The notes beneath the pieces are model-generated. The model saw nothing but the letters and a program-made list of their open reading frames with translations, did not search any database and was not told where the DNA came from. A stretch of 64,000 nucleotides of DNA, from positions 256,001 to 320,000 of the forward strand of contig CAWKMU010000003.1 of assembly GCA_963850905.1 (NCBI GenBank). Direction: 5' to 3'. Shown here piece by piece: positions 9,584 through 38,333 of the stretch. Source of the stretch: an uncultured Gemmatimonadales bacterium (GTDB lineage Bacteria > Gemmatimonadota > Gemmatimonadetes > Gemmatimonadales > Gemmatimonadaceae). Every line of letters starts with the position of its first letter. Position 1 is the stretch's first letter. A program made the translations under genes and the position numbers.

Positions 9584-9652
9584 CGGATCGATCCCAACTT
9601 TGCGCCGCTGCACGGCAATCCGCGTTTCGAGCGATTGATCGCGCAGCCGTAA
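9584..9652 (+). pseudogene. Relic C-terminus of a Ser/Thr kinase-TPR paralog
   Basis: Translates RIDPNFAPLHGNPRFERLIAQP-stop, matching RIDPNFASLNGNPRFERLI at the end of 15242..17920. Confidence 0.75.
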
Positions 9653-9797
9653 GCGTCACACGCCTGGTCGGATGCGCCGGCGGTTGGCGCTGCCAGCGAG
9701 CGACATTGTCAGCGCGGTCACGGCCGTCTTCGCCGTCACCGCCATCGCGACCGCGGCCGGAAATGGCCGTTTGCGCCCGGCCGATCCTCGGGCGTGG

Positions 9798-11604: not shown

Positions 11605-11741
11605 ACCGCCCAGCTCGAGGATTCGCCGCCGCCCAAAGTCGGTTAACTTCGCCGCTTGAGAGTGAGCGGCCGTTGAGAGTCGCGACTGCGCGGCGGAGAA
11701 TCGCCGACCGTCGCCGGCCGCGGGGACACACCTTGGACACC
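11605..11741. mobile_element. Degenerate att-like site, copy A (core plus arm)
   Basis: 11/15 match to core ACTTCCCAGTTCGAC, then AAAGTCGG...TTCGCCGCTT...AGTGAGC...TCGCCGAC...GGACACACCTTGGACAC, as in the copies at 23343 and 25434. Confidence 0.65.
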
Positions 11742-13208
11742 GTCGAGTTGCGCACCCTGTTGTCATCGGACGCGAATCTCCCCCCCGCCCCGCCAGCGTC
11801 GCGCATCGCCAGCAAGAGCGTGCTGCCATGGCTGATTGCGGTAGCGTTTTTCATGGAATCGCTGGACACGACGATTCTCAATACCGGGGTGCCGACCATC
11901 GCAGCGGCGCTCCATGTCGCTCCGCTCAGCATGAAGTCGGTGCTGGCGAGCTACACCCTGAGCCTCGCAGTCTTCATCCCGATCAGTGGATGGATGGCCG
12001 ATCGGTTCGGAACTCGTCGCGTATTTGCCTCCGCGATCGGCATCTTCACCCTGGGATCATTCCTCTGCGGCATGTCGAGCGACATTCACGCTCTCGTGGC
12101 ATGCCGCATTCTGCAGGGCTGTGGCGGAGCCATGATGGTGCCCGTCGGCCGGCTCACGATCGTGCGGACGTTCGCCAAATCCGAACTGGTTCGCGCCATG
12201 AGCTTCGTCGCCATCCCCGGTTTGGTCGGTCCGATGTTGGGTCCGATCGTCGGCGGTGTGATCGTCGCATACCTGCACTGGCGGCTGCTGTTCTTCGTGA
12301 ACGTTCCGATTGGCCTCTTCGGTCTGTACATGGTCTATCGGCACCTGCCCGACTATCGCGAAGAGCACACCCATCCCCTCGATGTGACCGGGTTGCTGCT
12401 CTTTGGATCCGGTGTCGCACTGCTTTCCTACGTGCTGGAGGTGTTCGGCGAACATACGCTGAGCGCGCCCGAAATTGTGGCAGCCCTGGCCGTGTCCATC
12501 CTCCTTCTGGCCGGCTACGGATTTCACACGATGCGGACGGCATTTCCACTGCTTGATCTCACCCTCTTTCGGATTCGCACCTTTCGCGTGGCCGTGAGTG
12601 GCAGCTTCCTGACCCGCCTCGGCATCGGCGGCATTCCATTTCTCTTTCCCCTGCTGTATCAGGTGGGCCTTGGGTTCACCCCGGTGCAGTCTGGCCTCCT
12701 CATCATGCCGCAGGCCTTCGCGGCCATGAGTCTCAAAACGACAATGCCGCGCATTTTGGCGCGCTTTGGTTACCGTGCCGTCCTGGTCTCGAACACGCTC
12801 CTCATCGGCCTGCAGATCATGCTGTTCGCGACCATTGGGATTGACACGCCAGTATGGTTGATCCTGGCGGAAGTGTTCAGCTATGGATTCTTCACATCGC
12901 TCCAGTATACGAGCATGAACACGCTCGTCTTCGCGGACGTGGACGAAGAACAGGCGAGCCATGCGAGCTCGATCGCCAGTACGATGCAGCAAATGGCCAT
13001 CAGTTTCGGCGTGGCCTCGGCTTCGTTGGTGACAGCGTTCTTCATTCCGGATCGCCACACGTCGAACCCCGCTCAATTCATTCACGGCGTCCAGCGAGCA
13101 TTTCTTGTGCTTGGCGGAATGACCCTGGTCTCCACGATCGTTTTCCGCGAACTGAGGCGAGGCGATGGCGACACGGTCAGCGGGGGCACGGCACTGCACG
13201 CCGGGTAA
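11733..13208 (+). CDS. DHA2-family MFS efflux permease (EmrB/QacA, MdtD-like)
   Basis: FMESLDTTILN, GWMADRFGTRR, RILQGCGGAMMVPVGR and FFVNVPIG motifs; about 14 TM; start uncertain. Confidence 0.9.
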   Translation: MDTVELRTLLSSDANLPPAPPASRIASKSVLPWLIAVAFFMESLDTTILNTGVPTIAAALHVAPLSMKSVLASYTLSLAVFIPISGWMADRFGTRRVFASAIGIFTLGSFLCGMSSDIHALVACRILQGCGGAMMVPVGRLTIVRTFAKSELVRAMSFVAIPGLVGPMLGPIVGGVIVAYLHWRLLFFVNVPIGLFGLYMVYRHLPDYREEHTHPLDVTGLLLFGSGVALLSYVLEVFGEHTLSAPEIVAALAVSILLLAGYGFHTMRTAFPLLDLTLFRIRTFRVAVSGSFLTRLGIGGIPFLFPLLYQVGLGFTPVQSGLLIMPQAFAAMSLKTTMPRILARFGYRAVLVSNTLLIGLQIMLFATIGIDTPVWLILAEVFSYGFFTSLQYTSMNTLVFADVDEEQASHASSIASTMQQMAISFGVASASLVTAFFIPDRHTSNPAQFIHGVQRAFLVLGGMTLVSTIVFRELRRGDGDTVSGGTALHAG

Positions 13209-13267
13209 TGGGTGCGAGCAAAGCAGTCGAGATTCGCAGGCGCGACCATGTAACCACCGAGGTGGAA

Positions 13268-15194
13268 ATGAACGGAACCGTGAAGACGTGGCTCCGCGGA
13301 TTGGGGCTCACCACCGTGGCCATCGTTGTCCTTGGCGCCATCGTGGTGGCCGTCTTGACTGCTCGTGTGCAGCTGCCCGGCGAAGAGCGGGTGCCCGCCG
13401 GCCTCCGTCGCAATCAGGCCGTCTACGTGCAGATGCGCGACGGCGTCCAGATCGCGGTGGACATCTCGGCTGCCGCCGGATCTTCGTGCGAGTGAGCGCG
13501 TGCCGGTGCTGATGCGGACCACGCGCTACTGGCGTGCCAACCAGATCGGCTGGGGCCTTCGCGCGCTGATTGCGCTGCATCGATCTTCTGCAGAAGTGCT
13601 CGATCGGCAAACGGACTACTTCAATATCCGGCGATTCGCGGTGCTCGTGGTGGATGCGCGCGGCAGCGGAGCGAGCGAAGGACTGCGCGTGTCGGAATAT
13701 TCTCCCGATGAAATTGCCGACCTGGGCGAAGTAGCCGGCTGGGCCGCGCGACAGCCCTGGTCGAACGGGCGAGTGGGAGCCTTCGGTGTGTCGTATGACG
13801 GGAACACGGCCGAGCTATCAGCCGTACCGAACAATCCCGTCATCCGTGCGGTGGCGCCGCTCTACGATGACTTCGACACGATGCTGGGTCTCGAACGGCC
13901 CGGTGGCGTCTACGACGTAGGCATGATCCAGAATTGGAGTGACATTGTGGGCGCGATGGACCGCGACAATGTGTGCGGCATCGACAAGCTCACCGGTTGG
14001 GCGTGCTGGTACACACGCCAGCTGGTGCCCGGAGTCAAACCGGTGGACTCTGACAGAGACGGCAAGCACCTCAGAGAAATCGTCTCGCAGCGTCACAATC
14101 CTGCCCTGACGACCAGTCTGGCCGCGACGGAATTCAGCGACGACGCGTTCGAGACCTCGAAAGGGCCCCTGACCCTGGCCCAAATTACGCCGTACGGTTT
14201 GCGGCGGCAGATCGAATCGTCCGGAGTATCGATGCTGGTCTGGTGCGGCTGGCTCGACGCGGGCACGTGTGACGGTTCGCTGAGCCGCTATCGCAATTTC
14301 AAGAACCCGCAGCAAGTGGTAATCGGCGCGTTTTCGCACGGCGGCGGCTACGATGTGGACCCGTTTCTGCCGCTCGACAAGCACCGCCCGCCCAACCCGC
14401 CGCTGGCGGAGCAAATGCGAATGCACGCAGAATTCTTCGACCGGTTGTTGCGCAGCGATCCCCCCGAACCGATCACGCCCGGCGTGCATTACTACACGCT
14501 CGGCGAAGGCCAGTGGCACGACACGGCGGTGTGGCCACCCGTGGGGTTGGAGAATCGCCGGTATTTCTTCGCGGCCGATCATGCGCTTGTTGAGCAGATG
14601 CCGTCACAGGCGCGCGCGACCGATTCGTATACGGTTGATTTTTCAACGACCACAGGTGCGCATAACCGCTGGCAAACGCAGTTGGGCGGGGGCGATGTGA
14701 TCTACCCAGACCGTGCCGAAGAAGACACCAAACTGCTGACGTACACGAGCGCGCCGCTCGAGACGGACGTGGAAATCACCGGTTCGCCGGTCGTGACAAT
14801 CGAGATGGCTTCGACCACAAGCGACGGCGCCGTGTTCGCGTATCTCGAAGACGTCGCCGCAGACGGCCGTGTCACGTACGTTGACGAAGGGATTTTCCGC
14901 GCAATCAACCGCAAGATCGCACCGAAGCCCCTGCCTTACGTGCCGCTCGGCCCCGCGCACAGCTATCTGCGCTCCGACGCGGAACCCATGGTTGCAGGCC
15001 AATCTGCGGAAATTGCGTTCTCGATGTTCCCAACTTCAGTGTTGCTCCACAAGGGACACCGCATCCGCCTGGCGCTCGCCGGCGCCGACGTATCGATGTT
15101 CGAACGGATTCCGGCCAACGCAACGCCAACCTGGACCGTGTATCGCGAAAAAAGCCGGGCGTCTTCTCTTGCAGTCCCTGCGAGAACACGGTGA
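13268..15194 (+). CDS. CocE/NonD-family hydrolase (frameshift near 13466)
   Basis: N-terminal anchor and MRDGVQIAVDI in one frame; DARGSGASEG, QPWSNGRVG and GVSYDG in the next. Confidence 0.88.
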
Positions 15195-15241
15195 GCGCTG
15201 ATTCCGTGCGAGGTGCATCCTCTGGACACAGCCAAACGGCG

Positions 15242-17920
15242 TTAAGACGTCGGCGCGGCCGCGCTGACCCTTTTCGAGATCAGTCGCTCGAAGCGCGGGT
15301 TGCCGTTGAGCGACGCGAAGTTGGGATCGATCCGGATCCAGTCCGGAGTGAGGAGGTACGGCTCCTTGAGCAGCACCTCCAACTGGTCGAGTGCTTTCTC
15401 CGGCTCGCCCACCAGCAGGTAGATCCGCACCAATACGTGCTCGTAGTAGCGACGCACGATCGCTCCACCGGGCACCGGCGCCATCGCCACTGCCCGTTGC
15501 CCCTCGGCCACCGCTTCGCCGCGGCGGCCCGCGTAGGCGAACGCGAGGCCGTATTGCGCGTGCACATTTGCGTCGTCGGGACTGGCGCGCAGCGGGGCCG
15601 CGAACGCCAGTCGCGCTGAGTCGCCGTAGGCGTGTGCCCGGAGCCGGTCCCCCCGAAGCGCGAACAGTTGGGCCATGACCAGCGGGAAGTCGTACGGACT
15701 ATTGCCGAAGGCACTTGGGGGCAACGTCTGGACGAGTCTCGTTTGGGCGCTGTCAAGGACCCAGACCAGATCGTCGTACACTGCCAGGTATGCCGCCAGT
15801 GTGGCGGGGTCGATAGTCGGCGACGCCGCCCGAATGATCGCTCGGGCGCCGGGAAGATCCCCGACGGCCAGCTCGACCTCGGCACGAAATTCGACCGCTT
15901 CGAGATCCGTCGGTTGCAGAGCGATCGCATGGTCTAGCGCAGTGCGAGCCTCAGCGAATCGCCGGAGATATAGGTAGGTATTTCCCAGATCGACCGCGAT
16001 TCCAACATCGCGCGGGTCGAGCCGGGCCGACCGCTCGTTGAGCGCGAGGCCCTCGGCCCAACGGCCGGACAGTTTCTCGTAGCTCGCAGCATAGTCGAGG
16101 AGAAGCGCGTTATTGGGTGAGGCTCGGAGCCCAGCATGGACCTCTCCCAGAGCCTGGGGCCAATCACTGCGGACAAGCGCGTAATAGCTCGCCCGCGCAG
16201 CGTGCGCCTCCGGGAGATCTGGCGCCAAGGCGAGCGCCCGCGCCGAAGCCACCCGCGCCGACTCGGCATCGGCCGGGCTGTGTGTACCCGGATCGAAGTC
16301 GTACACGGCCGTGTAGGCCCTGGCGAGCGCAGCCCATGCCTCGGCGAATCCCGAGTCGCGGTGCACCGCCTCTTGGTACCAGTCCAGGGCGCGACGGCTC
16401 GTGCCCGGCGCAAATCCCTTGGCAGTCTCCTGCCCGCGCAAGTATGCGTCGTACGCCTTCAGGTTCGTCGTCGGTTGCTGAACCAGTGCCTGTCGGGCGG
16501 GCGCATTCAACGTGACTTGGAGCTGCTGCGCCACCTTACTCGCGATGTCGGCCTGCACCTGGAACACGTCCGTGAGCGATGCGTCGAACGGCTGCTCCCA
16601 TTTGTCGGCCGCCGTCGAAGCCTCGACCAAGGCCGGGCTGACCTCCACACGCCCCGGTGTCCCAGGTGCTTTGGCCCAACGGACCTTCCCCATCAGGATA
16701 TAACGCACGCTCAATTCTTGGCCGATCTGCTGCGGCGTCTTCGTAGTTTTGCGGTACTGAGCGGAGCTGCCCGGTGCGATCACTTCGAGGCCGGGAACGG
16801 ATGTGAGCTTGCCGCGAATGGCATCGGTCACACCGTCCGCGAAGTAGGCGTCCGTCGTATCGCCCAGATTGTCGAACGGCAGGACGGCCAGTCGCACTGA
16901 CCCGGTGGCCGTGGCCGCGACGCGGTCGGCGAGGGCACGCTGATGCCAGCGCCAGGCGAAGAGGGCGCCAACACCGACGAGGACGCCGAGCGCGAGCACG
17001 GCGACACCCGCTGGGATGCGGTGACGTGAGGCTGGAGCGCTCGGTAAGACAGTCGCCCTCGCTCCAGCAAGCGATGTGCTCGCCCCGCGTTCCGCCGTAT
17101 CGAGCGCGTTGGCGAATGCGGCCGCTGTGGGGAACCGATCGGCCGGCACTGGGGATAGGGCCTTGCGCACGGCGTTGTCCACCGCGTCTGGTACGGACGG
17201 TCGCGTTCGGCGTAGCGAGGGTGGATCGCCGGTCAGCATCTTCGCGGCAACGGCCTGCGCCGTCGGCCCCGTGTACGGAGGTTCCCCGGCCAGCGTCTCG
17301 TACAACACGACACCGAGCGAGTAGACGTCAGTGGCCGCATCGATCTCGCGCTCGCCCGCCGCTTGCTCGGGACTCATGTAGACTGGCGTGCCCAGCGTCA
17401 TCCCGGTGGCCGTCAGCGTGTCGCCGGGTCCGCCAGACATGGTCGGTCGTGCGATGCCGAAGTCGGCCACCATCGCTTGCCCATCGACCAACAGGATGTT
17501 CTCTGGCTTGATGTCGCGATGGATCACCCCGTGGCGGTGCGCGTAGTCGAGCGCCAGAGCAACCTCGCGTGTAATGCGCAGCGCTTCATCGATCGCGAGT
17601 TGGCGCTGCCGGCGCAGCCGGTCTCGGAGCGATTCACCTTCGATGAGCGGCATTGTGAACCACAACGCACCCGACGCCGTCTCACCCGAGTCGTAGACGG
17701 AGACGATGTGCGGGTGTTGCAAGCTGGCAGCGAGCGTGATCTCGCGTCGGAAGCGTTCGGCACCTACGCTGCTCGCGAGCTCGCTCCGCAAGACCTTCAG
17801 CGCGACCCGTCGTCCGTGCTTGGTGTCGCGCGCCACGTAGACCGTCGCCATGCCGCCGCGGCCCAACTCCCCCTCGACCGTATACCCGTCTGGCCCAAAC
17901 CCCTCAGGCACGACCGCCAC
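15242..17920 (-). CDS. Hanks-type Ser/Thr protein kinase with TM segment, TolB-like domain and TPR repeats
   Basis: GRGGMATVY, VALK, HRDIKPEN, DFG and YMSPE motifs; LAVLPFDNLG...YFADG; TPR-like helices. Confidence 0.93.
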   Translation of the reverse strand: MAVVPEGFGPDGYTVEGELGRGGMATVYVARDTKHGRRVALKVLRSELASSVGAERFRREITLAASLQHPHIVSVYDSGETASGALWFTMPLIEGESLRDRLRRQRQLAIDEALRITREVALALDYAHRHGVIHRDIKPENILLVDGQAMVADFGIARPTMSGGPGDTLTATGMTLGTPVYMSPEQAAGEREIDAATDVYSLGVVLYETLAGEPPYTGPTAQAVAAKMLTGDPPSLRRTRPSVPDAVDNAVRKALSPVPADRFPTAAAFANALDTAERGASTSLAGARATVLPSAPASRHRIPAGVAVLALGVLVGVGALFAWRWHQRALADRVAATATGSVRLAVLPFDNLGDTTDAYFADGVTDAIRGKLTSVPGLEVIAPGSSAQYRKTTKTPQQIGQELSVRYILMGKVRWAKAPGTPGRVEVSPALVEASTAADKWEQPFDASLTDVFQVQADIASKVAQQLQVTLNAPARQALVQQPTTNLKAYDAYLRGQETAKGFAPGTSRRALDWYQEAVHRDSGFAEAWAALARAYTAVYDFDPGTHSPADAESARVASARALALAPDLPEAHAARASYYALVRSDWPQALGEVHAGLRASPNNALLLDYAASYEKLSGRWAEGLALNERSARLDPRDVGIAVDLGNTYLYLRRFAEARTALDHAIALQPTDLEAVEFRAEVELAVGDLPGARAIIRAASPTIDPATLAAYLAVYDDLVWVLDSAQTRLVQTLPPSAFGNSPYDFPLVMAQLFALRGDRLRAHAYGDSARLAFAAPLRASPDDANVHAQYGLAFAYAGRRGEAVAEGQRAVAMAPVPGGAIVRRYYEHVLVRIYLLVGEPEKALDQLEVLLKEPYLLTPDWIRIDPNFASLNGNPRFERLISKRVSAAAPTS

Positions 17921-18160
17921 GCGAGCCCGCCACGTTGGAGAATGGCTCGAAGCTATTAGGCCGGGGCGTCCCGCAGTAGCACCATTTCAGCCCTTCCTCG
18001 TCCCTCATAGCCGCGGCCTATCGGCCCACCACAAAGAACGTATTGGAATTCCGATGGCGCCCCCCTGAGTATTCACCCATGGCCGTTCCGTGGTTGCGAC
18101 GAGGCACGATCCGCCCTGACACTCGTCCGCAACGCCGTGCCATCCCTTCGGAGCTGCACC

Positions 18161-18610
18161 ATGGCCGACCCAATGCTGTCGCGTCGAATCTTCCTCGTGA
18201 ATGGCCTTGTAGCGGGCGTTGGCGCGCTCCTGGGCGCGGCCCCCGTTCGCGGCCATCGTGGCTGCGCGCTGCATCACACGCAGGACGTTGATCACGGGCC
18301 GCATCCCACACCTCGGCCTGGGATTGACGCCTCGCACGTGCTCAAGCCCGAGCAGTTGAAAGACGCCCCTAACGCGGTCACAGCCTTCAACGAGGTACGC
18401 CAGATCCCCCAAGTAGTCGACGGGATTCGGTGTCATTGTGGCTGCGCCCGGGAGAAGGGCTTCTATTCGCTCTTGAGTTGCTACGAGAGCGACGGCATGG
18501 CACGAGACTGCCACATCTGCCAGGGCCAAGGTCGTATGGCGTTTCGACTGCACAGTGCCGGCAAGTCATTGACGGAAATCAGGGACGCGATCGACGCCAA
18601 GTACGACTGA
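18161..18610 (+). CDS. PCYCGC-motif-like Cys/His-rich protein with twin-arginine signal
   Basis: SRRIFL Tat motif; RCHCGC...SLLSCY...CHIC; C-terminal IRDAIDAKY. Confidence 0.75.
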   Translation: MADPMLSRRIFLVNGLVAGVGALLGAAPVRGHRGCALHHTQDVDHGPHPTPRPGIDASHVLKPEQLKDAPNAVTAFNEVRQIPQVVDGIRCHCGCAREKGFYSLLSCYESDGMARDCHICQGQGRMAFRLHSAGKSLTEIRDAIDAKYD

Positions 18611-18653
18611 GATCTACGTCACGTAAGTCATCGATCTTCATTCGAGGCCCAAC

Positions 18654-19598
18654 ATGCAAGTCACCATCCCCGGCGTGGTGGTGGTCATCGCGATGGTCGG
18701 AATCGTGCCACGCGCCCACGCACAGACCTCACAAGGGCTCAACGCAAGCGAGCCGGCAAGCATCTCGCAGATCGTCGATGGTACGAAGATCACGATCGAG
18801 TACTCACGGCCCCGCGCGCGCGGGCGAACGGGTTTGTTCGGCACCGAGGTGAAGTTCGGCCAGACCTGGACGCCGGGTGCGAATCAGTCGACGACGCTTG
18901 CCGTTACCAAGGATGTGTCAATCGACGGACATCCGGTTGCCAAAGGAAAGTATTCCGTCTGGATGGTTGTCGCGCCTGGAGACTGGGAGTTGGTGCTCGA
19001 CCACGACACAACGCTATTCCACATGGCGCACCCAAAGTCTCGGCCCGGTCAGATTCGCTTCGTGGTACCGAAAGAGCACCATGACTTCGTGGAAGTACTC
19101 ACCTGGTCGTTCCCAAAGGTCACAACGACCGGGATGACGCTCACGATGCAGTGGGACACGGTGTCCGTTCCCCTCGACATTAGGGTCATGCCCACCTTCA
19201 CCACTGCTGTCCCGCCGGACGCTGCTGAGTGTGTGGCGGGCGCCTACCACTGGCACTGGTCGCCCCGCATGGCGGACCCGTATGTCCCGAAGGACACCAC
19301 GCTTCCGCGCTACCCGGGGATGAAGAGCGCCGAGGCGACGTTCACTGTCCGCTACGTCGGAGGCGAGCTACGCGCGACCGTCGATCCGCCGATGTTCAGC
19401 GATCCCGCCTTGCGCGAATTCGTGCTGATCCAGAAGAAAGGCGATTTGTACGACTTTGGGCGCGTCGATCGCGGGGAGTTGGTCGAAGTCTGGGACTACG
19501 TCGCCCTGCAGTTCGCGGTCGCGAACGGGCACGCAGACAGCCTCGAGGCTCGCGGCACGGACGACGAACTATGGGCGACTGGGAAGAGGAAGCCCTGA
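18654..19598 (+). CDS. DUF2911-domain exported protein with C-terminal extension
   Basis: ASISQ...ITIEYSRP..RGR...LFG...WTPGAN signature; signal peptide. Confidence 0.8.
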   Translation: MQVTIPGVVVVIAMVGIVPRAHAQTSQGLNASEPASISQIVDGTKITIEYSRPRARGRTGLFGTEVKFGQTWTPGANQSTTLAVTKDVSIDGHPVAKGKYSVWMVVAPGDWELVLDHDTTLFHMAHPKSRPGQIRFVVPKEHHDFVEVLTWSFPKVTTTGMTLTMQWDTVSVPLDIRVMPTFTTAVPPDAAECVAGAYHWHWSPRMADPYVPKDTTLPRYPGMKSAEATFTVRYVGGELRATVDPPMFSDPALREFVLIQKKGDLYDFGRVDRGELVEVWDYVALQFAVANGHADSLEARGTDDELWATGKRKP

Positions 19599-19651
19599 CC
19601 ACCGCGACTGGCCCTGACGTCGCGGCAATGACTCGACCAGGAGGATGTGCG

Positions 19652-20456
19652 ATGACTGAGGATCCATTCCTGGAGTTCAAGCGAAAGCAGCGTGAGGCGT
19701 GGGCGACGTTCGCGCCGGCAGCGACGTTCACAACACGCGTGGCGGCCCACCTCGTCGGTTTTGCCGGAGTCAAGATCGGCGAGTCGGTGCTCGATGTGGC
19801 CACCGGCACCGGCGTCGTCGCGGTGACAGCGGCGCGAGCGGGGGCTCGCGTCAGCGCACTCGACCTGACGCCCGAGCTCCTCGCCGAAGCTCGTGAAAAC
19901 GGCAGGATCGCCGAACACCCGGAGATCGCGTGGCAAGAAGCCGATGCGGAGAAACTGCCCTACCCCGATGCATCCTTCGACGTCGTGGTCAGTCAGTTTG
20001 GCCACATGTTCGCGCCGCGTCCGGAGGTCGTCGTTGCCGAGATGCGTCGCGTGCTGAAGCCCACCGGACGAGTCGCCTTTGCGACTTGGCCACCTGAGCA
20101 TTCTTGTCGGTCGGATGTTCATGCTCGTGGGCCGCAACTCACCCCCTCCGCCTCCGGGGGTTATCCCGCCCCCACTCTGGGGAAGCCCCACGATCATCGC
20201 TGAGCGCCTCGCCGTTGGGTTCCGCGAGCCATTCTTCGAGCGCGGCGCGATGATGGCCCCAGCGTTGAGCATCCCTCACTACAGGCGCTTCATGGAGGCA
20301 ACCATCGGCCCCGTGCAAAAGCTGGTCGACAATCTTTCGACCGCGCCTGACCGGCTCGCAGCTTTCCGCGGCGAGTTTGACGCCCTCGTCACGCCCTACT
20401 ACGGGGAGAACCAGGTCCAGCAGAGCTACCTGCTAACGCGTGCCCACGCGCGCTGA
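19652..20456 (+). CDS. Class I SAM-dependent methyltransferase (frameshift near 20103)
   Basis: VLDVATGTG, DAEKLPYPDASFDVV and EMRRVLKPTG motifs; AGGAGG RBS; C-terminus in the 20079..20456 frame. Confidence 0.88.
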
Positions 20457-20549
20457 GGTCGGAGCGGACAGCGGCGACGGGGTCGAAACGCACGGAGCGC
20501 TTGGAGTTGGCATGGCGCGCCGTTCTCTCGTGTGGATGGCGGACACCGG

Positions 20550-22988
20550 CTAGTCCTGCCGTAACGCTCTAACCGGATCGATGCGACTCGCCCACCGCGC
20601 TGGTAGGAAGCTCGCCGCCAGCGCCGCGGCGACGAGTAACGCGACCACCGGGACCACGGTTGCCAGCTCCATTGACTGCATGCCGACGACGACCTTGAGC
20701 AGCACGCGACCGGCAAGGAGGGCCGCGGCGAGGCCTAGTGCGGTGCCCATTGCAATCAGCCGCATGCTGTCCCGAAGAATGAAGCGGACCACACCGCCTG
20801 TCGTGGCGCCCAGCGCGAGCCGCACGCCGATCTCCTGAACGCGTTGCGTCGTGAGGTAGGAGAGGACACCGTAGATCCCCACGCAGGCGAGGAGCATCGC
20901 GACTGCAGCAAAGGTGCCGAACAACAGCATTAGGAAACGCTGTTGATCGAGCGAAGCGCGCACGACGTCATCCATCGTCTGGATGTCGTACATCGCCTGA
21001 TAGGATCCGGGACCGCCGAACGCCGACTGTAACGGACGGATAGCGGCCGCCGGTGCGGTTGTCGTGCGCACGGCGATCGATAGGAACGTGGAGTAGAGGT
21101 GCACGAGCGACGCCGGCACCTGGGCGAACGGATAATAGAGCTGATCGTGTACGGGCGACGCATTGTCGTTCGCCAGGCCCCAATGGCGCACATGCCCGAC
21201 GACGCCGACTACACGCGATGGGTCGCGACCCATTGCCGGCAGCCAGAGGCGCTGACCTACGGGATCCGTGTCCCCAAAGGCATGGCGCGCGAGATTGGCA
21301 TTGATGACCACCACCGGTTCGGTGCCGAGGCTGTCGGCATCCGTGAAGAACCGGCCCTTCAACAGCGGGATTCCCATGACCGCCCGATAGTCCGGCGTCA
21401 CACTCGACGCGAGCGCGTCTGGCTCCTGGTCCGGCGGCGGGGCCGTCGGCGTCGTCCAATACGACACCGTGTTCTCGCCTTCCCGCATGGGAATGATGTC
21501 CGCCAGAGCGACGCCGCGAACACCGGCCACGGCGCGCGCCCGCCCGACGACCTGACGCCACGCCGCGCGTATCTCTTGGGGATCGCCCAAGGCACTCGGC
21601 GCGAGCGCGAAGCGCGCGACCAGCACGTGGTGGGGATCGATCCCGGGATCGCGCGCCGATTGCGCGATCAACGTTCGGCCGAGCATGCCGGCCGACACCA
21701 GCAACACGATCGCCAGCGCCAACTCGGCCACCACGAACGCCCCGTGCATCCGCCGCGTGTTGGCCGTTGTCCCGCGCCCCGATGCGCGCAGCGTACGCCC
21801 GAGATCGCGGACGCTGGCGCGGAGCGCCGGCGCCAGCCCCGCCAAAATGCCCGTGGCCAGCGACACTGCGAGCGCGAACACTAGCGCGCGCCAGTCGAGT
21901 CGAATCTCTTGAGCTCGCGGCAGCCCGCCCGGCCACAGCGCGACGAAAGGCCGGACACCGGCCGCGGCCAGGATCGCGCCCATTGCGCCGCCAGCCACGC
22001 CGAGGACGGCGCTCTCGGTCATGCATTGTCGCGCGATGCGACCGCGGTTGGCGCCCAAAGCGGTGCGGAGCGCTAGCTCATGACCGCGGGCAACGGCGCG
22101 AGCCAAGAGCAGACTGGCGATGTTCACGCACGCGATGAGCAAGACGAGCGACACCGCGGCGAGCAGCAGCCACAGCGTCGAACCGATCTTTCCGACGACC
22201 TCGTCGCGCAGCGGGTGTGCAACTATACCAGCCCCTGCGTTCGTCGCGGGGTACTGCGCCGCCAACTGGCGACCGGTGAGCGCCAGCTCGGCTCTCGCCT
22301 GGGCCAGCGTGATGCCCGGTCGCAGTCGGCCGAGCGCGTGAATAAAGCGCGCGCCACGAATGTGCAGACGCGGATCGGTGGTCTGGCCGAGTGGCGTGAA
22401 GACGTCCGCTTGTCCCGTAAGCTCGAACGCAGCGGGCAGCACGCCGATCACGACATAGGTGACACCGTCATAGCTGAGGGAGCCGCCGATTGCCGAACGA
22501 CTCCCGCCGAAATGCCGGTGCCACAGCACATCGCTGATAATGGCGACGGGTGTTGCGCCGGGGCGATCGTCGTCGCCGCGGAATGCGCGTCCCTGCTCGG
22601 GCTGAAGGCCAAGGACCGGGAGGAGGTTCGCCGACAGCAGGCGGCCCGATACGTATTCGGCCGGCCCGCTGCCGGTGATCGTACCGCCGCCGTAGGTCCA
22701 CGCAGCTATATCGAGCGTGCGACTCATTCGGGTCAGGTCCTGGATGTCGGGATACGAATATCCCCACACCTCGCCGACGTCCTGTGTAGAGGTCCGGAGC
22801 GCCACGAGGCGATCTGACGCCGGGAACGGCAGCCGTCGCAAAAGAACGCCGTCGACGATAGTGAACATGACGGTGGCGGCGCTGATGCCGAGCGCCAAAA
22901 TGAGCAGCGCCACCGCCGCGAATCCCGGCCGCTGCCTCAGGGCGCGGAGCGCGTGCCGGATGTCTTGCGCGATGTCATCGAGTAGCAT
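20550..22988 (-). CDS. Duplicated MacB/FtsX-type ABC permease (ADOP-like)
   Basis: QDIRHALRAL, LALGI, LLIACVNIASLLLAR, EIGVRLALGA and ASRIDPVRALR motifs; two repeated halves. Confidence 0.92.
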   Translation of the reverse strand: MLLDDIAQDIRHALRALRQRPGFAAVALLILALGISAATVMFTIVDGVLLRRLPFPASDRLVALRTSTQDVGEVWGYSYPDIQDLTRMSRTLDIAAWTYGGGTITGSGPAEYVSGRLLSANLLPVLGLQPEQGRAFRGDDDRPGATPVAIISDVLWHRHFGGSRSAIGGSLSYDGVTYVVIGVLPAAFELTGQADVFTPLGQTTDPRLHIRGARFIHALGRLRPGITLAQARAELALTGRQLAAQYPATNAGAGIVAHPLRDEVVGKIGSTLWLLLAAVSLVLLIACVNIASLLLARAVARGHELALRTALGANRGRIARQCMTESAVLGVAGGAMGAILAAAGVRPFVALWPGGLPRAQEIRLDWRALVFALAVSLATGILAGLAPALRASVRDLGRTLRASGRGTTANTRRMHGAFVVAELALAIVLLVSAGMLGRTLIAQSARDPGIDPHHVLVARFALAPSALGDPQEIRAAWRQVVGRARAVAGVRGVALADIIPMREGENTVSYWTTPTAPPPDQEPDALASSVTPDYRAVMGIPLLKGRFFTDADSLGTEPVVVINANLARHAFGDTDPVGQRLWLPAMGRDPSRVVGVVGHVRHWGLANDNASPVHDQLYYPFAQVPASLVHLYSTFLSIAVRTTTAPAAAIRPLQSAFGGPGSYQAMYDIQTMDDVVRASLDQQRFLMLLFGTFAAVAMLLACVGIYGVLSYLTTQRVQEIGVRLALGATTGGVVRFILRDSMRLIAMGTALGLAAALLAGRVLLKVVVGMQSMELATVVPVVALLVAAALAASFLPARWASRIDPVRALRQD

Positions 22989-23338
22989 GATGAGCCCCCG
23001 TTTGCCAAAACCGGGCCAACCTTGCTCACCAGGTAACGCGTTGATCGGCCAGGTGTTGCGCGTGGGACCCCTCGGACCGCGTGTCCGTTTGCGGTCGGCG
23101 GCGTCCCGGAACCGCGCATCGGGCGCGCACCGTCTGCCGCCCGAGGGCGCTCGTGTCGTGTATCAAAGGGACACCGGCCTTTCAGAGCACCTCATCCAGA
23201 CGATCGGCGTCATGAAGCAGAGCAATCAGTTTGCAATACCCAAGGGGTGCTCAAAGCGGTCGAAAACGCCGCCTAGGCGCACACTCTGGACACGCCCCAA
23301 TCGCAAGCGGCCGGCGAAGCAACAACTCAGGCCGATGC

Positions 23339-23480
23339 TCAGACTTCCTAGTTCGACGTCAGGCCAGCACCCGAAGTCGGCGAAGTTCGCCGCTTCATAG
23401 TGAGCAATCGCCGACTCCAGCCGACTTTTGTCGCGAAATCACCGACTACCGCCGGTCTTGGGACACACTTTGGACACACC
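23339..23480. mobile_element. att-like site, copy B (core plus arm)
   Basis: 14/15 match to the GNAT 3'-end core; minus strand reads S-N-stop-E-V-stop; arm has GCCGAC repeats and GGACACACTTTGGACACACC. Confidence 0.8.
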
Positions 23481-23585
23481 CTAACCTGGGCGGTTGTGAC
23501 TGCTCCTGTCCTGCGGATTGCGCACCGCCCGATGCCGCCCGATGTCGCGTCAGATTGTCCCCCGAATGGTGACCGGACGGCGTTG

Positions 23586-25103
23586 CTACACCCCTGCGGG
23601 CATCAGCTTTTCAACGACCTCGTCGATGCTGAAGCTGGCCGGCCGTTGTCGGATCGGGAACTCCTTCAGAGATTCCAGCCACTTGCTGACAAGGACTTGG
23701 GCCGGAACCATGAGGAAGCTGCGGTCGGCGAACCACTTGTCATAGAATAGCGTGCTGTCCTCGCCGGCTTCGAACGGATCGGACCGCAGATTGAAGATCT
23801 TGGGGATTCGCATCTGTGAGAACGGCTCACGCCAGACCGAAAGTCCTCGGGCGCGCTGCTCAGAGAAAACGACCTTCCAATCCCGCGCACGCACTGCGAG
23901 CAAGTCCCCGTCGTCGCTCCAGTAGAGGAATCCCTCGCGGGGCGATGTCTTCTCGTCGCCTTTGAGGAACGGCACGAGGTTGTAGCCATCGAGGTGCACT
24001 TTGAACGTCCTGCCGTCGGCGGCGTAGCCTTTCTTGACCTTCTCCACGAGCTCGGGCTCGCCGGCCGCCGCTGCGAAGGTCGGGATCATATCCTGCAGCG
24101 AACAGATATCGTTGATCACCCGTCCTGGCTCGATCATGCCCGGCCAGCGCATCACGCAGGGGATGCGCCAGCCACCGTCCCCCTGAGTGTCCTTTTCGCC
24201 GCGGAAGGGCGACGCGCCCCCGTCAGGCCAGGACATCTTTTCCGCGCCGTTGTCAGTGGTGAACACGACGATCGTATTGTCGGCGACGCCAAGATCATCG
24301 AGCGTCTTGAGCAACTGTCCGACGTAACCGTCCAGCTCCACCATGCCGTCGGGGTACAGGCCTAGGCCGGTCTTTCCCACCGACGCCGGCTTGAGATGAG
24401 TAAACACGTGCATGCGGGTCGGATTGAAATAACAGAACCAGGGCCTGCCCTCCTTGGTCTTGCGACCCATGAAGTCCACAGCAGCCGCGAGGAATTCCTC
24501 GTCGACGGTTTCCATCCGCTTTGTGTTCAGCGGTCCGGTGTTCTCGATTACTTGCTTGCCTACTTTACCGAACTGCGGATCGACGGTGGGGTCATCCCTG
24601 TCTGTCGCCTTACACCGCAATACTCCACGAGGGCCAAATCGCTTCCGGAAGGCAGGATCCTTGGGATAGTCTGGATTCTCGGGTTCTTGTTCGGCGTTCA
24701 AGTGATACAGGTTGCCGAAGAACTCATCGAAGCCATGCACGGTCGGCAGGAACTCGTTGCGGTCACCCAAGTGGTTCTTGCCGAACTGACCTGTCGCGTA
24801 GCCGAGCTGCCTCATGAACTGGGCGACGGTGGGATCGTCCGCGCTCAACCCGACAGTCGCTCCGGGAAGACCCACTTTCGTGAGTCCCGTGCGGATTGGC
24901 GATTGTCCGGTGATGAACGCGGCGCGGCCCGCTGTGCAGCTCTGCTGGCCGTAGAAGTCCGTGAACAGCGCCCCTTCCTTCGCGATCCGATCGATGTTCG
25001 GCGTTCGATACCCCATGATCCCGAGATTGTAGGCGCTGACGTTGAACCAGCCAATGTCGTCAGCCATGATGAACAGGACGTTCGGCTTTTTCTGGGCCGC
25101 CAC
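23586..25103 (-). CDS. Arylsulfatase (Cys-type, no signal peptide)
   Basis: KPNVLFIMADD, SCTAGRAAFITG, GKNHLG, TTDNG and LRSDPFE motifs. Confidence 0.95.
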   Translation of the reverse strand: MAAQKKPNVLFIMADDIGWFNVSAYNLGIMGYRTPNIDRIAKEGALFTDFYGQQSCTAGRAAFITGQSPIRTGLTKVGLPGATVGLSADDPTVAQFMRQLGYATGQFGKNHLGDRNEFLPTVHGFDEFFGNLYHLNAEQEPENPDYPKDPAFRKRFGPRGVLRCKATDRDDPTVDPQFGKVGKQVIENTGPLNTKRMETVDEEFLAAAVDFMGRKTKEGRPWFCYFNPTRMHVFTHLKPASVGKTGLGLYPDGMVELDGYVGQLLKTLDDLGVADNTIVVFTTDNGAEKMSWPDGGASPFRGEKDTQGDGGWRIPCVMRWPGMIEPGRVINDICSLQDMIPTFAAAAGEPELVEKVKKGYAADGRTFKVHLDGYNLVPFLKGDEKTSPREGFLYWSDDGDLLAVRARDWKVVFSEQRARGLSVWREPFSQMRIPKIFNLRSDPFEAGEDSTLFYDKWFADRSFLMVPAQVLVSKWLESLKEFPIRQRPASFSIDEVVEKLMPAGV

Positions 25104-25429
25104 GGTATCCCCCTGAGTGAATTAGACCGCACTCAGACGATACGGCGACCGTGCGCGTACTCAATTGGACCAATGTCTACATATGGCAGACCCCTGCTTG
25201 GGAACCGCAGGCGCGGCCCTTGGTGGCCGCCGCGCGCACCGAGCGTCGAGCGCACCACGCGCGCGTTCATCAGCGATGGCAAGGGGCTAATGGCTGAACA
25301 TCTTAGCCTTAGTCCTATGCGTCGACGACCACAGGACCAGCATCGGCCAATCGCCCGCGCCACCAGCGTCGTTGGTTATGTGGTCCACGTCATCGCTGCC
25401 AACGGCCGAGACTGAGCCGAGCTCGTTTT

Positions 25430-25573
25430 TCAAACTTCCCAGTTCGACGTGTCGCCGGATTGCAAAGTCGGCGATGTTCGCCGCTTTCATAGTGAGCAAT
25501 CGCCGACACCAGCCGACTATTTTCGCGAAATCGCCGACTATCGCCGATGTCCGGGACACACTTTGGACACACC
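25430..25573. mobile_element. att-like site, copy C (core plus arm)
   Basis: 15/15 match ACTTCCCAGTTCGAC to 28364-28378; minus strand reads SNWEV-stop; arm aligns with 23358-23480. Confidence 0.85.
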
Positions 25574-25736
25574 ACGATGTAGCGAGCTACCCGTGGTGAC
25601 GAATCGTGGTGTCGCTCGCGAGGCAAGAGCGCTTCCAGCGGGCCGCATCGATGGCGGGTGAGCTCGCGCCACAACTCGCCCGATTTCGCCACCGCGACGG
25701 ACGGCCAGCATTATGCGCGGATGGCGCAGGCGGCAG

Positions 25737-26180
25737 CTATGGTCGGGCCGTTACTTCCGGGCGGTCCGATTGAGCAGTGACCCGTTGCCGCAAGCGCCCT
25801 GCATTGGCCATTGCCGGTCCCACGATGGGCTTCCCGGCACGGTATAGGCCGATGCGCGCAACCCAGAATAGCACGGTGCCAACGACAATCAGCGCGGCTG
25901 CGATGAGGCCGAGGGGACCTAATCCTGTGAGCTCCTGCTGCAGCGTGCCCTCGCGTGGACCGTTTACGGCTGCGATGGCGAGCTGAATCGCGAGGATGGT
26001 CCCGAAAACCCACTCCCGCCACCACTTCGCAACGTGGTGTGAAAAACGCGGATGCCGATCGGCCCAGGCGTCAAATGTAAAACCTACTCTACGGAGCCCG
26101 ATACCTAGGACGCCCAGCCCAACGATCCCAAGCCAAGCCAGGAAGATGACTGATCCAAGCCACAGGACGAGATGAGTCAT
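25737..26180 (-). CDS. Hypothetical membrane protein
   Basis: Three hydrophobic segments; GAGG upstream of the ATG. Confidence 0.55.
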   Translation of the reverse strand: MTHLVLWLGSVIFLAWLGIVGLGVLGIGLRRVGFTFDAWADRHPRFSHHVAKWWREWVFGTILAIQLAIAAVNGPREGTLQQELTGLGPLGLIAAALIVVGTVLFWVARIGLYRAGKPIVGPAMANAGRLRQRVTAQSDRPEVTARP

Positions 26181-26285
26181 GCGATCCTCGAGTAGTGCTG
26201 CTTACGCGGTGCGGGCGCGTCGACATCCGCCCAAGTCACACCCCGTTGAGACGTAATCGCCACACTTTGCTTGTCGGCTTGGACA

Positions 26286-26996
26286 TCACGCCTGCCCGGA
26301 TTTCGGGTACGAGACCACGGACCGTCGCGAACGCGTGCCCATGATCAGGTCCCAGAGTGGTGACGTCACGCCATAGTCACGATCGGGATCGGTAAAGTGG
26401 TGTCGGTAATGGCGCCACTTGGTGTATCGGCCGAGCGCCGTGCGCATGCGTCGATGATGCACCGCATAGTGCACAGTGTCGTACACGAGATAGCCACCAA
26501 CGAATCCGGCAAACACCGACCCCCACAGATGCGTGCCGACGACGGCGCGAAACAGCAGGGCGAATAGGAACGCGAGTGGGACGCTCGCCCCGGGCGGTAT
26601 GACTAACCGCGATGAATCGCTCGGATACTCGTGATGCACACCATGCATGATGAAATACACGATGTGGCGCCACCCTGGCAGGTTGGGAATGGCAGCCTCG
26701 CCAGGCATGAGTCGGCCGACAACATCATGCGTTTCGCTCATGATGGCGTCAGGGGCGTGGAACAGATGCCTGTGCAGCACATATTCGACGGCGGTCCACA
26801 AGAGCAGTCCCGCCCCCACCAGCCCCGCGTCCAAGAGGGGCGGCGTCGGTGACCACCACAGCAGACCGGCAATCACAGGCACATAAATGAGATGCGGAAT
26901 CGCGGGGTGCACCCGGGTCATCCGTTCCAGCCAGTCCTGACGAAACATCCGAACCGACTCGTCCCGCGCAGAGACGAAATGTGGATTCACAGTCAT
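26286..26996 (-). CDS. Fatty acid hydroxylase/sterol desaturase family protein (FA2H-like)
   Basis: His boxes EYVLHRHLFH, HGVHH, YDTVHYAVHH and HYRHH; YGVTSPLWD. Confidence 0.92.
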   Translation of the reverse strand: MTVNPHFVSARDESVRMFRQDWLERMTRVHPAIPHLIYVPVIAGLLWWSPTPPLLDAGLVGAGLLLWTAVEYVLHRHLFHAPDAIMSETHDVVGRLMPGEAAIPNLPGWRHIVYFIMHGVHHEYPSDSSRLVIPPGASVPLAFLFALLFRAVVGTHLWGSVFAGFVGGYLVYDTVHYAVHHRRMRTALGRYTKWRHYRHHFTDPDRDYGVTSPLWDLIMGTRSRRSVVSYPKSGQA

Positions 26997-27029
26997 GCGC
27001 CTCACCTCACGCGAACGGGTTGTCCCATA

Positions 27030-27164
27030 TCAGCCTTCCCCCGGCATTGCGGTTGCGACGAGCACCGCGGTCACAATTAAGACGGTAGTTGCGAGCACGA
27101 GTTCCAGCGCAGCACTCCGATACGTCAACAGGGTGCGTGCCAACGGGTGCCTCCCCGAACGCAT
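27030..27164 (-). pseudogene. Probable CopD C-terminal relic (44-aa ORF)
   Basis: Directly downstream of copC; ends RSAALELVLATTVLIVTAVLVATAMPGEG-stop, resembling the last TM helix of CopD. Confidence 0.55.
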
Positions 27165-27173
27165 GACGAGCTG

Positions 27174-27611
27174 TTACCGGCCGCCTGCAACGACAAAGGC
27201 GATGGCGCCCGACGCAGGGTGACCATCCGTCGCGGCCGTTTTCCATGCGATCGTGTAGGTGCCGGGCACCACGTGTCCTGTAACGTCCGCCACGATGGGC
27301 GAGTGTGGCGCGCCGTCGCGGTGCACGGCGGACACCGTTATCGGCATTGTGCTGGCCCCCATGGACATGCTCAGCCCAACGGAGGTGATCGCGAGCTCCG
27401 GGTCTTCACTAAACCACAGCTTGATCGCCGCGGGCGGCGCACGCAGCGTGTCATTGTTAGCCGGTTCGGACTTGACGAGGTGCACGTGCCACAGGCCAGC
27501 GGGCGGAACCCCGGCCGTCGCTTGGTGACGGGTAGTGGCGGCGGCGAACACCGTGACAAGCGCCAGGATACCGGCAGCGCGCACAGTCGACGGAATCGGA
27601 TGAGCGAACAT
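27174..27611 (-). CDS. copC: Copper-binding periplasmic protein CopC
   Basis: HVHLVKSEP...PAAIKLWFSE...GTYTIAWK...DGH. Confidence 0.88.
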   Translation of the reverse strand: MFAHPIPSTVRAAGILALVTVFAAATTRHQATAGVPPAGLWHVHLVKSEPANNDTLRAPPAAIKLWFSEDPELAITSVGLSMSMGASTMPITVSAVHRDGAPHSPIVADVTGHVVPGTYTIAWKTAATDGHPASGAIAFVVAGGR

Positions 27612-27825
27612 GAAAATTCCCGGCCAGATGATGGCCAACGAGGCGTTGATTACGAGCGCACGCGCCGACAGCTTGCCATGGGACGCGACAACGCGTCACG
27701 CGCAAAGCGCGTACGGATAGGTGGACGACGAGAACCCGAGACTTGCCGGTTTGAACCGCGCCCCGGTACTTCGGCCCGGCGGGCGCGTTTGCGCACCTCG
27801 CCGGAGAACCCCTATTGGTCGGGGG

Positions 27826-28248
27826 TTAGGCCCAAAGCACAGGAGGGCCGACGGGCGGCGGAAGGACGACCTGTGGCGCGGCAGGTCGAGCAGCATCTCG
27901 CACCGGTGTCGCCACGCTCGTGACGACGCGGGCCGGCACGACAGGAATGGCGACAAGCCTGCCGGCGGCCAGCGTGACCGTCGCCGGCGTGCAGCAGGTG
28001 CCATCACATCCGCTGTGCTGGCGGTGCCTCGTGGGTGCCGACCCGTCGGGCGCAACTGGTGACGGATGCCCCGCAACCGCTTGGCATTGCGCCGACCCGT
28101 CGTGCCCCATCGGCGCCATGCCCGGCATCCCAGCCATCGTCGCGCCGCCGCCTTCGGCCATTGGCATCGACGCGACGCCTGGAAGGGCGACGGCGAACCA
28201 CAGCCAGATCACGCCAGCAAATAGGCGCTGCGGCCAGGAGCGGCGCAT
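27826..28248 (-). CDS. Met/His/Cys-rich exported ORF upstream of copC (DUF2946-like leader)
   Basis: Hydrophobic N-terminus, MAGMPGM, HRQHSGCDGTCC, C-terminal LPPPVGPP. Confidence 0.6.
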   Translation of the reverse strand: MRRSWPQRLFAGVIWLWFAVALPGVASMPMAEGGGATMAGMPGMAPMGHDGSAQCQAVAGHPSPVAPDGSAPTRHRQHSGCDGTCCTPATVTLAAGRLVAIPVVPARVVTSVATPVRDAARPAAPQVVLPPPVGPPVLWA

Positions 28249-28359
28249 ACGCGCAATATACACAAGTCCGAGGCGCGGGCCACAGGGCCGACGCGTGCGA
28301 CCTTGTAGCACTCCCTGGGCCTCGCGCGCTGACATCCACTCAACGACCTATTCTGCTTT

Positions 28360-29338
28360 CTACACTTCCCAGTTCGACCACACAATCCCGTGGTCCGCGC
28401 GGCGCTCCGGTGCGGTCGCGAGCGTCATGCGGAGATCGCTCCACCGCACGCGCGCTCCAAGGGCGATGAGCCGCGTCATAGGCCGTCGTGTACTCGCTCT
28501 GCACACGAAGCGCGACGCGGCGGGCTCCGCATCGGCGCGCATAGTCGGCCAGCGCACGGACCATGGGGTCCAGATCGACCTCGCGCGCGAGCGCGAGCTT
28601 GAGCACACGCAGCTCCTCACGGGCGCGTCCTTCGACGAGCGGCGCCGTGTGGCACAGCGCAAAGCCCGTGAGCTCGTCGCCGGAGTATTGTAAGACGGTA
28701 TCGCCCAGCGCCAGCTCGTCGGTCAACACGATCTCGCGCGTGAAGTCGTACCCGGGCATGAGCCGATGCACCAGCACGCGACTCGCCGCCACCACGTCGT
28801 CCCGATCGCTCTGCGGCAACCGCCCCAATAGCGGCGCCGCACGTTCGCCCGGCGCAGCATCGAAGGTCAGTGTCAACGTCAACCGGCCGGGCACGAGCCC
28901 GAGCGCCGAGTAGAACCCGATGTTGTCCATCGTCCTCGGCATCGTCTCGAGGCCGATCACCTGCGCCTCTCCTCGTCGCAACCACTCGATACCGGCGCGC
29001 ACGACCTCCTTGCCGATCCCGCCACCCTGCGCGTCAGGGCGGACCGCGAGGGGACCCATCCAGCCCTCGGTGCCCGATCGATGCGTCATGTTGAACGCGG
29101 CGATCTCGTCGCGCTCGCCCCGCCAGCACATCGCGCCCTCACCAGCGTCGTCGAGCGCGTAGCGCCAGATCGCCGGATTGAGGAACGGCACGCGCACGCC
29201 CATCATGCCATCGCGGCGATACCGCTCGGTAAACGCGTCGCTGAAGACCTGGTTGAGCGCCGGGATGTCATCGCGCCCGGCCTGATACGGCCCGTCGAGA
29301 TGTCGCACGGTCTTCCAGCTTCGCGCAATCGCCATCAC
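28360..29338 (-). CDS. GNAT-family N-acetyltransferase (frameshift near 28475); its 3' end carries the att core
   Basis: MGPLAVRPDAQGGGIGK acetyl-CoA motif and NIGFYSALG; C-terminus ARVRWSDLRM...WSNWEV-stop in the 28360 frame. Confidence 0.85.
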
Positions 29339-29445
29339 CGACTCCCTAGCCGCACGCGTGGACCGTCGCCGTACGCGCGGTCAGTCGTTGCCGTCGTCGT
29401 TCCGAGACCCCTAAACCCCAGACCCCAAACCCGCAGTTACGTCCC

Positions 29446-33137: not shown

Positions 33138-33149
33138 GCGTACCGCAAT

Positions 33150-36067: not shown

Positions 36068-36180
36068 TCTCACCTCTCCTTGTCTGTCTCCGTCCCCTTT
36101 CTACGGCCACGCCAGCCCCGTTCCCGTTCCATCAAGGCCTTGTCACGCGGCACCATGCCAGCAGCTCGGTTAGCCTCTCC

Positions 36181-36219
36181 AACGTCCAGCGTCTAGCGTC
36201 CAACGTCTAGCGTCTAGCG
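36181..36219. repeat. Heptamer tandem repeat (CGTCYAG)
   Basis: About 5 degenerate units; same family at 54361-54421. Confidence 0.8.
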
Positions 36220-36221
36220 CC

Positions 36222-37205: not shown

Positions 37206-37221
37206 TGACCCTACACGACGC

Positions 37222-38241: not shown

Positions 38242-38308
38242 ACGTTGGAAAGCCAGACCTCGAAATCGGGACGGGAAACCACCGCCCGCGCGTTCCCCTG
38301 ATGGGCGG

Positions 38309-38333
38309 GTAGGGGCGACGCATGCGTCGCCCC
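38309..38333 (+). repeat. GTAG-type REP element
   Basis: GTAGGGGCGACGCATGCGTCGCCCC. Confidence 0.85.

Follow-up and report, generated by a model that had tools for sequence, protein, structure and literature searches.

How did three gene units without an integrase come to be stacked behind a single acetyltransferase gene? The question arises from a 64-kb stretch of contig C3 (the window) of an uncultured Gemmatimonadales bacterium, whose genome (G000) comprises 4.49 Mb and is 82% complete. Downstream of a GNAT-family acetyltransferase gene, the last codons of this gene recur three times, and they delimit an inner unit 1 (2930 bp), a unit 2 (2091 bp) and an outer unit (11738 bp). It is likely that this array arose by serial site-specific integration of small integrase-bearing islets, followed by erosion of their integrases, which corresponds to the tandem accretion of cis-mobilizable elements (CIMEs). 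The GNAT gene end itself is a real attachment site that is used throughout the family.

The 15-nt core is exact (15/15) at 28364, the gene end, and at 25434, while the copies at 23343 and 11605 match at 14 and 11 positions, respectively. On the minus strand, the first two read SNWEV*, the third SN*EV* and the fourth SSWAV. Within the genome, the exact core occurs twice, compared to 0.005 copies expected from composition; a single mismatch was found in two further copies (at 23343 and, without an arm, on contig C2) and two mismatches in 11. Each displaced core is followed by an arm of about 125 bp. With the core excluded, the arms are 83% (105/126), 65% and 64% identical to each other, and their alignments scored 180, 108 and 105 compared to 28-30 ± 8 for shuffled sequences, while gene-side sequence scored 27-34 against the arm, meaning that the GNAT end itself has none. 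Core positions, match counts, minus-strand readings, the common arm and the unit sizes had been read from the letters alone in an original prediction, and all of them were recovered by the genome-wide core search and the alignments. A repeat dispersed over the genome was ruled out, since an arm profile that included the three window copies matched three places only, all of them at this locus (next match E 0.22). An assembly artefact was also ruled out as the origin of the stack, since short-read contigs span the junctions at 25434 (three studies; X1, X5, X6) and 23343 (one contig; X2) with 0 differences. For 11605 and 28364, there was no spanning contig with enough overlap among the pieces listed for X1, X2, X5 and X6.

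Orthologues of the target gene were found in 147 of the 151 family genomes searched. In the present assembly, a 1-nt insertion near 28476 puts SNWEV* into a different frame from the GNAT start, as seen in the alignment to G103, the closest relative compared. Since all 29 of 29 GNAT orthologues terminate with SNWE[VI], the predicted SNWEV is nevertheless the true end of the protein. Relative to G103, about a dozen insertions of one or two bases at 28476-32325 break GNAT, rad50 and mre11, one of which (30741) is absent from a short-read contig. The single-base insertions in these genes are probably errors of the long-read assembly.

Comparison with relatives revealed that the content of the site is variable. 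Synteny with G103 (95% protein identity) is lost at 28360 and regained at 11610; in between, G103 has 4.1 kb of other, unrelated genes as well as the terminal part of a decayed arm. A gene order shared by relatives without variable cargo, which would have spoken against the prediction, was therefore not observed. Five of ten genus genomes (G000, G103, G308, G287, G043) contain the core and arm, or part of the arm, downstream of GNAT, with G103 retaining the arm end only and G043 harbouring core and arm on a separate contig. Neither was found in the stretches read of G264, G180, G210 and G238; G147 could not be judged. Outside the genus, G324, G073, G017 and G088 possess core and arm at the same position. 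G149 and G036 were added by model R1, run on 150 genomes, whose training set included five of the seven strongly matching genomes; matches below about 30 bits, to which most of the 78 of 150 matching genomes belong, were taken as noise. A pattern scan of metagenomes yielded 26 loci (21 with a clear arm, two with a weak match to the arm profile, three with none), which reduce to about nine arrays. In several of them, two or three arms follow each other at distances of 1-6 kb, and one array extends into GNAT. In three arrays (L276, L277, L281), the units have the arm and about 450 bp of a paralogous lipoprotein-like gene in common, which suggests repeated arrival of related islets. The displaced cores of G043 (L103:1069-4388) are accompanied by HipA/HTH and BrnT/BrnA toxin-antitoxin pairs as cargo. 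Relatives were also searched for an empty site, and four genomes (G099, G002, G071, G050) are close to it, with GNAT located 265-680 bp from queD. The locus thus shows what is expected of an island, a direct repeat of the target end at both borders, a restored gene and variable content at a conserved site.

Islets with their own integrase were found at the same gene end. In G324, a displaced core and the gene end enclose an islet of 3.2 kb, which carries a helix-turn-helix (HTH) gene and a tyrosine recombinase (PF00589, above cut-off) convergent on the GNAT stop codon. Among the 30 best loci, the integrase adjoins the GNAT end convergently in four (G324, G149, G235, G005), and in the genome and viral collections in 5 of 81 loci, three of which duplicate earlier ones. 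In total, there are six distinct cases in which an integrase, or its C-terminal part, abuts the GNAT end, so the tyrosine integrase beside GNAT orthologues, which the prediction had proposed to look for, does exist in relatives. The order in intact islets is core, long arm, cargo, integrase ending in the short arm, and restored gene end. The long arm contains a palindrome (CGGCGA-N3-TCGCCG) about 20 bp out and the pair GGACAC-N5-GGACAC about 107 bp out. A second GGACAC pair lies within the last codons of the integrase and is followed by a motif resembling the binding site of integration host factor (IHF) and by the core; at the sequence level, direct-repeat arm sites are thus present on both sides of the core. 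The core-proximal motif resembles the IHF consensus WATCAANNNNTTR quoted in PMC7581858. It occurs in four of five integrase-adjacent gene ends and in one of about 52 others (that one carries the arm), the pattern having been drawn from the same sequences in which it was counted. Islets at other targets likewise carry the GGACAC pair both in the far arm and at the C-terminal end of the integrase.

These findings bear on the idea that a structured non-coding RNA or a repeat of the repetitive extragenic palindromic (REP) type accounts for the arm, its likeness to a gene end being incidental. Although two short hairpins are predicted in the arm alignment, the covariation term amounts to only -0.17 kcal/mol. 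Within the genome, the arm occurs nowhere but at this locus; where the integrases use other targets, it stands behind different cores, and the repeat at its end is found again at the C-termini of integrases. Since the integrase-bearing islets also contradict the idea directly, it is almost certainly wrong.

The position of the crossover can be narrowed down by comparing gene ends with their nearest displaced cores. In the ten innermost units, two of which span separate contigs, a 7-bp stretch (CCAGTTC in the window) is identical in six pairs, among them a variant that only 4 of 49 gene ends share. The columns of the stop codon, by contrast, are different in 6-9 of the same ten pairs. CCAGTTC may therefore represent the overlap region of recombination. 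GACG also forms the start of the long arm at the targets panD, ubiB-like and trxB-like, where it directly follows a different 7-mer. A likeness of the overlap to the T-loop of tRNAs was considered and dropped, since it fails for these three cores.

The original prediction stated that no intact integrase lies in the window and that the units are either decayed or cassette-like. Indeed, no member of the integrase and relaxase families was found among the 58 window open reading frames (ORFs) scanned, and the window has no PF00589 match. What had been missed is a relic next to the core at 23343. A DNA profile of the integrase 3' end, built without the window sequence and without the core, matched 23212-23317 with E 1.4e-5 genome-wide (next match 0.083); with the core included, E was 2.8e-11. 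The relic comprises about 35 codons with one frameshift and one stop and reads MKQSNQ, then, after the frameshift, GVLKAVENAA*AHTLDTP, which resembles the C-terminus of the integrase clade; the match of the clade protein profile to it was not significant. Together with the long arm, the relic gives 23343 the appearance of an attP-like junction, and the outer unit should therefore once have had an integrase. In the window, the short-arm GGACAC pair has been kept only at 23276; at its right end, unit 1 retains only the IHF-like motif and unit 2 nothing. Including the loci compared, the relics form a graded series, from full length through model positions 118-447, residues 348-410 only and positions 386-417 to the approximately 35 codons in the window, the IHF-like motif only, and nothing. 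Such a series is what erosion by deletion would produce, because the integrase gene includes the short arm, whereas the long arm is located at a distance from it. Of the two options offered, decay is thus the better supported one.

Serial integration is supported by the break of synteny with G103 at 28360 and its resumption at 11610, by integrases abutting GNAT, by the graded relics and by the matching overlaps. The last codons of GNAT would serve as attB for lambda-like tyrosine integrases of a clade from Gemmatimonadota. Their carriers would be islets of about 2-3 kb, consisting of the integrase, sometimes an HTH or excisionase-like gene, and a few cargo genes. Crossover would take place within the 7-bp overlap, the islet providing the last codons and the stop. 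Each newcomer would enter at the gene end and shift the resident outwards. Deletions may then remove the integrase together with the short-arm sites in its last codons, and the distant long arm would stay behind as a scar. By themselves, units in this state would be immobile. Their movement would require an intact neighbour acting in cis, capture by another element, or homologous replacement of the region. The mutations in the overlap at 23349 and in the 11605 copy probably lock both outer junctions.

The three successive insertions of the original prediction hold insofar as integration was serial, but the outer unit calls for a different view. In G287, the MFS (88% nucleotide identity) and S15 (86%) genes lie in the same neighbourhood, in another order and outside any arm; the flanking M28 peptidase gene is 88% identical, so that the divergence of MFS and S15 is at the vertical level. 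The kinase is 89% identical in G308, where it lies between other cores, and a kinase of 55-56% identity is located downstream of GNAT in G264, G210, G043 and G287. Because MFS, S15 and the kinase occur in other orders nearby in relatives, it is unlikely that the outer unit represents one clean insertion; this 11.7-kb segment is probably a mosaic. The same data could mean that only the attachment scars derive from site-specific integration and that most of the intervening genes are resident in a rearrangement-prone region or came in through homologous replacement, never as cargo. The position of MFS and S15 in G287, the recurrent kinase and the distance from GNAT to a conserved SDR gene, about 34 kb here versus 1-2 kb in near-empty genomes, agree with this. 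On the other hand, none of the genus members compared has units 1 and 2 at this site, the borders of both units coincide exactly with cores, and the homology of the copper module of unit 1 with its second copy on contig C4 stops at the core. As an account of the whole array, resident genes are very improbable; they fit the outer unit best, and for this part they have been incorporated into the explanation by serial integration.

The second copy of unit 1 (G000:C4:28428-32406) is 84-87% identical and its homology ends exactly at a degenerate core. A long arm after this core was suspected by eye and found no support from the arm profile. The copy lies within an element extending from G000:C3:3643116 to C4:42631 (L273, L274; about 53 kb if C3 joins C4), which sits in the 5' part of tRNA-Ser(TGA) and carries a tyrosine integrase of its own, a MobA/VirD2-like relaxase, metal genes (Nramp, a DtxR-like regulator, a TonB receptor, CopD/CopC) and several insertion sequences. 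G103 contains only part of the copper module, elsewhere than at the GNAT site. Either the module was captured from a GNAT-end array or it arrived at the GNAT site without its own integrase. For the sulfatase of unit 2, no copy of more than 71% identity was present in nine genus genomes.

Several observations weigh against serial integration of islets followed by erosion. Circles and empty-site joints, the former named in the prediction as circular junctions, were not found among the listed joints of X1, X2, X5 and X6, which comprise contigs only, from which rare forms are dropped. Most units have no integrase at all, and many carry a single host-like gene, as cassettes would. The copper module is present twice in the genome, both times without an integrase and ending at a core, and it is absent from the GNAT site of G103. 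The displaced core of G287 differs from its own gene end at two overlap positions. Serial integration also offers no account of how islets without transfer genes travel.

Some of these points would be accounted for if the units were non-autonomous cassettes moved in trans by an integrase of the clade, the GNAT end acting as an integron-like platform for single genes. The long arm, the core and the core-proximal IHF-like motif would then suffice for excision and insertion. Units of 0.5-3 kb with a single gene indeed recur (unit 2 of the window, G017, G088, G308, L276, L294, L296), the core-proximal motif is kept without an integrase in unit 1, G073 and L294, and a core marks the end of the copper module in both of its contexts. 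By contrast, right-hand breakpoints vary, with relics of many lengths, and units 1 and 2 lack the GGACAC pair of the short arm that most intact islets possess. No integrase of the clade that could act in trans was found among the eight PF00589 matches of this 82%-complete genome, the best clade-profile score (26 bits) belonging to the tRNA-Ser element on C4. Among the loci compared, there is no identical unit in distant hosts, and the copy on C4 has no detectable long arm. Cassettes are therefore an unlikely, though not negligible, alternative to erosion. A broader version, in which a phylum-wide clade keeps the arm sites and the GACG half-site, switches the 7-bp overlap and moves one-gene cassettes lacking an integrase in trans, is similarly doubtful. 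If true, kinases, lipoproteins, sulfatases and metal genes would be one-gene cassettes with relaxase-bearing elements as carriers, and the GNAT end would capture them in the manner of an integron platform, thereby supplying the large paralogue families of Gemmatimonadota.

Homologues of the G324 integrase were found in 106 of 401 family genomes, and 75 of the 80 loci from the genome collection are named Gemmatimonadota. Close relatives within the clade use the 3' ends of ychF and a trxB-like gene and the 5' ends of panD and a ubiB-like gene (L177-L183, L185, L190), with several of these islets containing frameshifted or truncated integrases; more distant relatives use tRNAs. In a quick tree of 87 rows (11 rows were left out as short or duplicate, three had no match), the users of protein genes fall into one 29-row branch (SH-aLRT 96) that also includes tRNA users. 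The six GNAT-targeting rows require two changes, so that this quick tree does not support a single origin of GNAT targeting. The integrases matched no NCBIfam model and, by sequence, no solved structure. HTH_17 excisionase-like genes lie near the long arm, below the Pfam cut-off.

The mechanism of tandem accretion is already known. PMC5704250 describes, for the ICESt1/ICESt3 family of Streptococcus thermophilus, a route of three steps, in which an element integrates, decays to a CIME and is joined by another that integrates at the gene end. Both systems show elements stacked at the end of a target gene that have lost integration genes and retain att sequences. The elements treated there differ from the present ones, whose parents are islets of 2-3 kb in Gemmatimonadota with no transfer genes seen, and most units of which keep one arm, so that their att sites are incomplete. 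Integration and transfer genes have been lost here, according to the scan of the 58 ORFs, apart from the integrase relic at 23212. Of attL and attR, cores and long arms are kept, the short-arm pair is retained only at 23276, and the overlap is mutated at two junctions. As to descent from an integrative conjugative or mobilizable element, no relaxase was seen in the intact islets of G324 and G019, while the copy of unit 1 lies inside a relaxase-bearing element. Relaxase-less islands carrying an origin of transfer are the subject of a recent preprint (bioRxiv 10.64898/2026.01.13.699239). With the att sites of lambda-type heterobivalent tyrosine integrases, as portrayed in PMC7581858 and PMC9791396, the locus shares a short core, a putative 7-bp overlap, unequal direct-repeat arms, an IHF-like motif beside the core and HTH_17 excisionase-like genes; it differs in that the integrases match no NCBIfam model, and binding of arms and IHF is suggested here by motifs.

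Integron cassette arrays are likewise rows of small gene units, equipped with attC hairpins. As in these arrays, the newest unit would lie next to the platform. However, there is no platform integrase at the GNAT site, each unit lies between copies of a host gene end, and arm sites of the double-stranded type take the place of attC hairpins. Folding and covariation of the arm are weak, as judged without running IntI and attC models. Integrases targeting dusA are reportedly an example of genomic islands in protein-coding genes. Of the islands mapped by TIGER/Islander, 43.4% lie in coding sequences, and tandem arrays are routine (PMC12424338). Since this resource requires an integrase and at least 2 kb (PMC12424338), it would miss the present integrase-less units. 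A description of the GNAT target site or of the integrase clade was not found in the open-access literature (subscription journals, supplements and the TIGER table were outside the search), in line with the prediction, which had known of none.

Coordinates of the att sites, units and neighbouring genes in the 64-kb window
Feature	Position	Strand	Remarks
Displaced core 3 and long arm	11605-11742	+	core 11/15; palindrome 11640; GGACAC pair 11724; arm end common to G103
Outer unit interior	11743-23211	.	MFS, S15 peptidase, Ser/Thr kinase-TPR, CYCXC protein, DUF2911, methyltransferase, ADOP permease
Decayed integrase 3' end and short arm	23212-23342	+	short-arm pair 23276; IHF-like motif 23319
Displaced core 2 and long arm	23343-23483	+	C>T at 23349 inside putative overlap; palindrome 23378; GGACAC pair 23461
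Unit 2 cargo	23586-25103	-	single sulfatase gene
Displaced core 1 and long arm	25434-25575	+	palindrome CGGCGA-N3-TCGCCG at 25469; GGACAC-N5-GGACAC pair at 25554
Unit 1 cargo	25576-28338	-	CopL-like (weak), CopC, fatty acid hydroxylase, 147-aa ORF
Core-proximal short-arm remnant	28339-28352	+	predicted IHF-like motif TCAA-N4-CTA; no GGACAC pair, no integrase
att core at gene end	28364-28378	+	putative 7-bp overlap CCAGTTC at 28369-28375
GNAT-family acetyltransferase (target gene)	28360-29338	-	Pfam PF00583; ends SNWEV*
Upstream operon	29446-37496	-	order nurA-like, herA, DUF6263, mre11, rad50, then GNAT
rad50/sbcC	29446-32280	-	frameshifted in this assembly
mre11/sbcD	32277-33137	-	part of the upstream operon
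DUF6263 gene	between herA and mre11	-	part of the upstream operon
herA	34031-36073	-	E 3.9e-46
nurA-like	36222-37496	-	weak match, E 0.046

The operon upstream of GNAT had been designated nurA-herA-mre11-rad50. The assignment of herA is firm and that of nurA weak, and the DUF6263 gene intervenes before mre11. In the genus members compared, rad50 adjoins GNAT. The nearest PDB entry to HerA is 7f6d, and its N-terminus is encoded by a 9-bp tandem repeat (35956-36054) specifying (EPL)n. Inside the outer unit, the match to the CYCXC family of (seleno)proteins at 18137-18610 lies below the cut-off. A fragment of the 3' end of a kinase-TPR gene at 9584-9659, inverted relative to 15275-15334, is probably the remnant of a deleted paralogue. 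Families of short intergenic REP-like repeats, which also occur in G103, are located at 2378-2453, 36156-36239, 38265-38429, 42345-42406, 54240-54437, 57178-57267 and 58492-58617.

For an abundant and barely tractable soil phylum, the analysis names an insertion hotspot that is used family-wide, together with a clade of integrases. It also draws attention to integrase-less stacks that are invisible to island finders requiring an integrase. The set of targets (GNAT, ychF, panD, ubiB-like, trxB-like, tRNAs) with common arm sites provides a natural series for the study of specificity change. The target is found in 147 of the 151 genomes searched and its gene is restored upon insertion, which would make a small intact integrase, combined with its attP, a candidate for a neutral integration tool.

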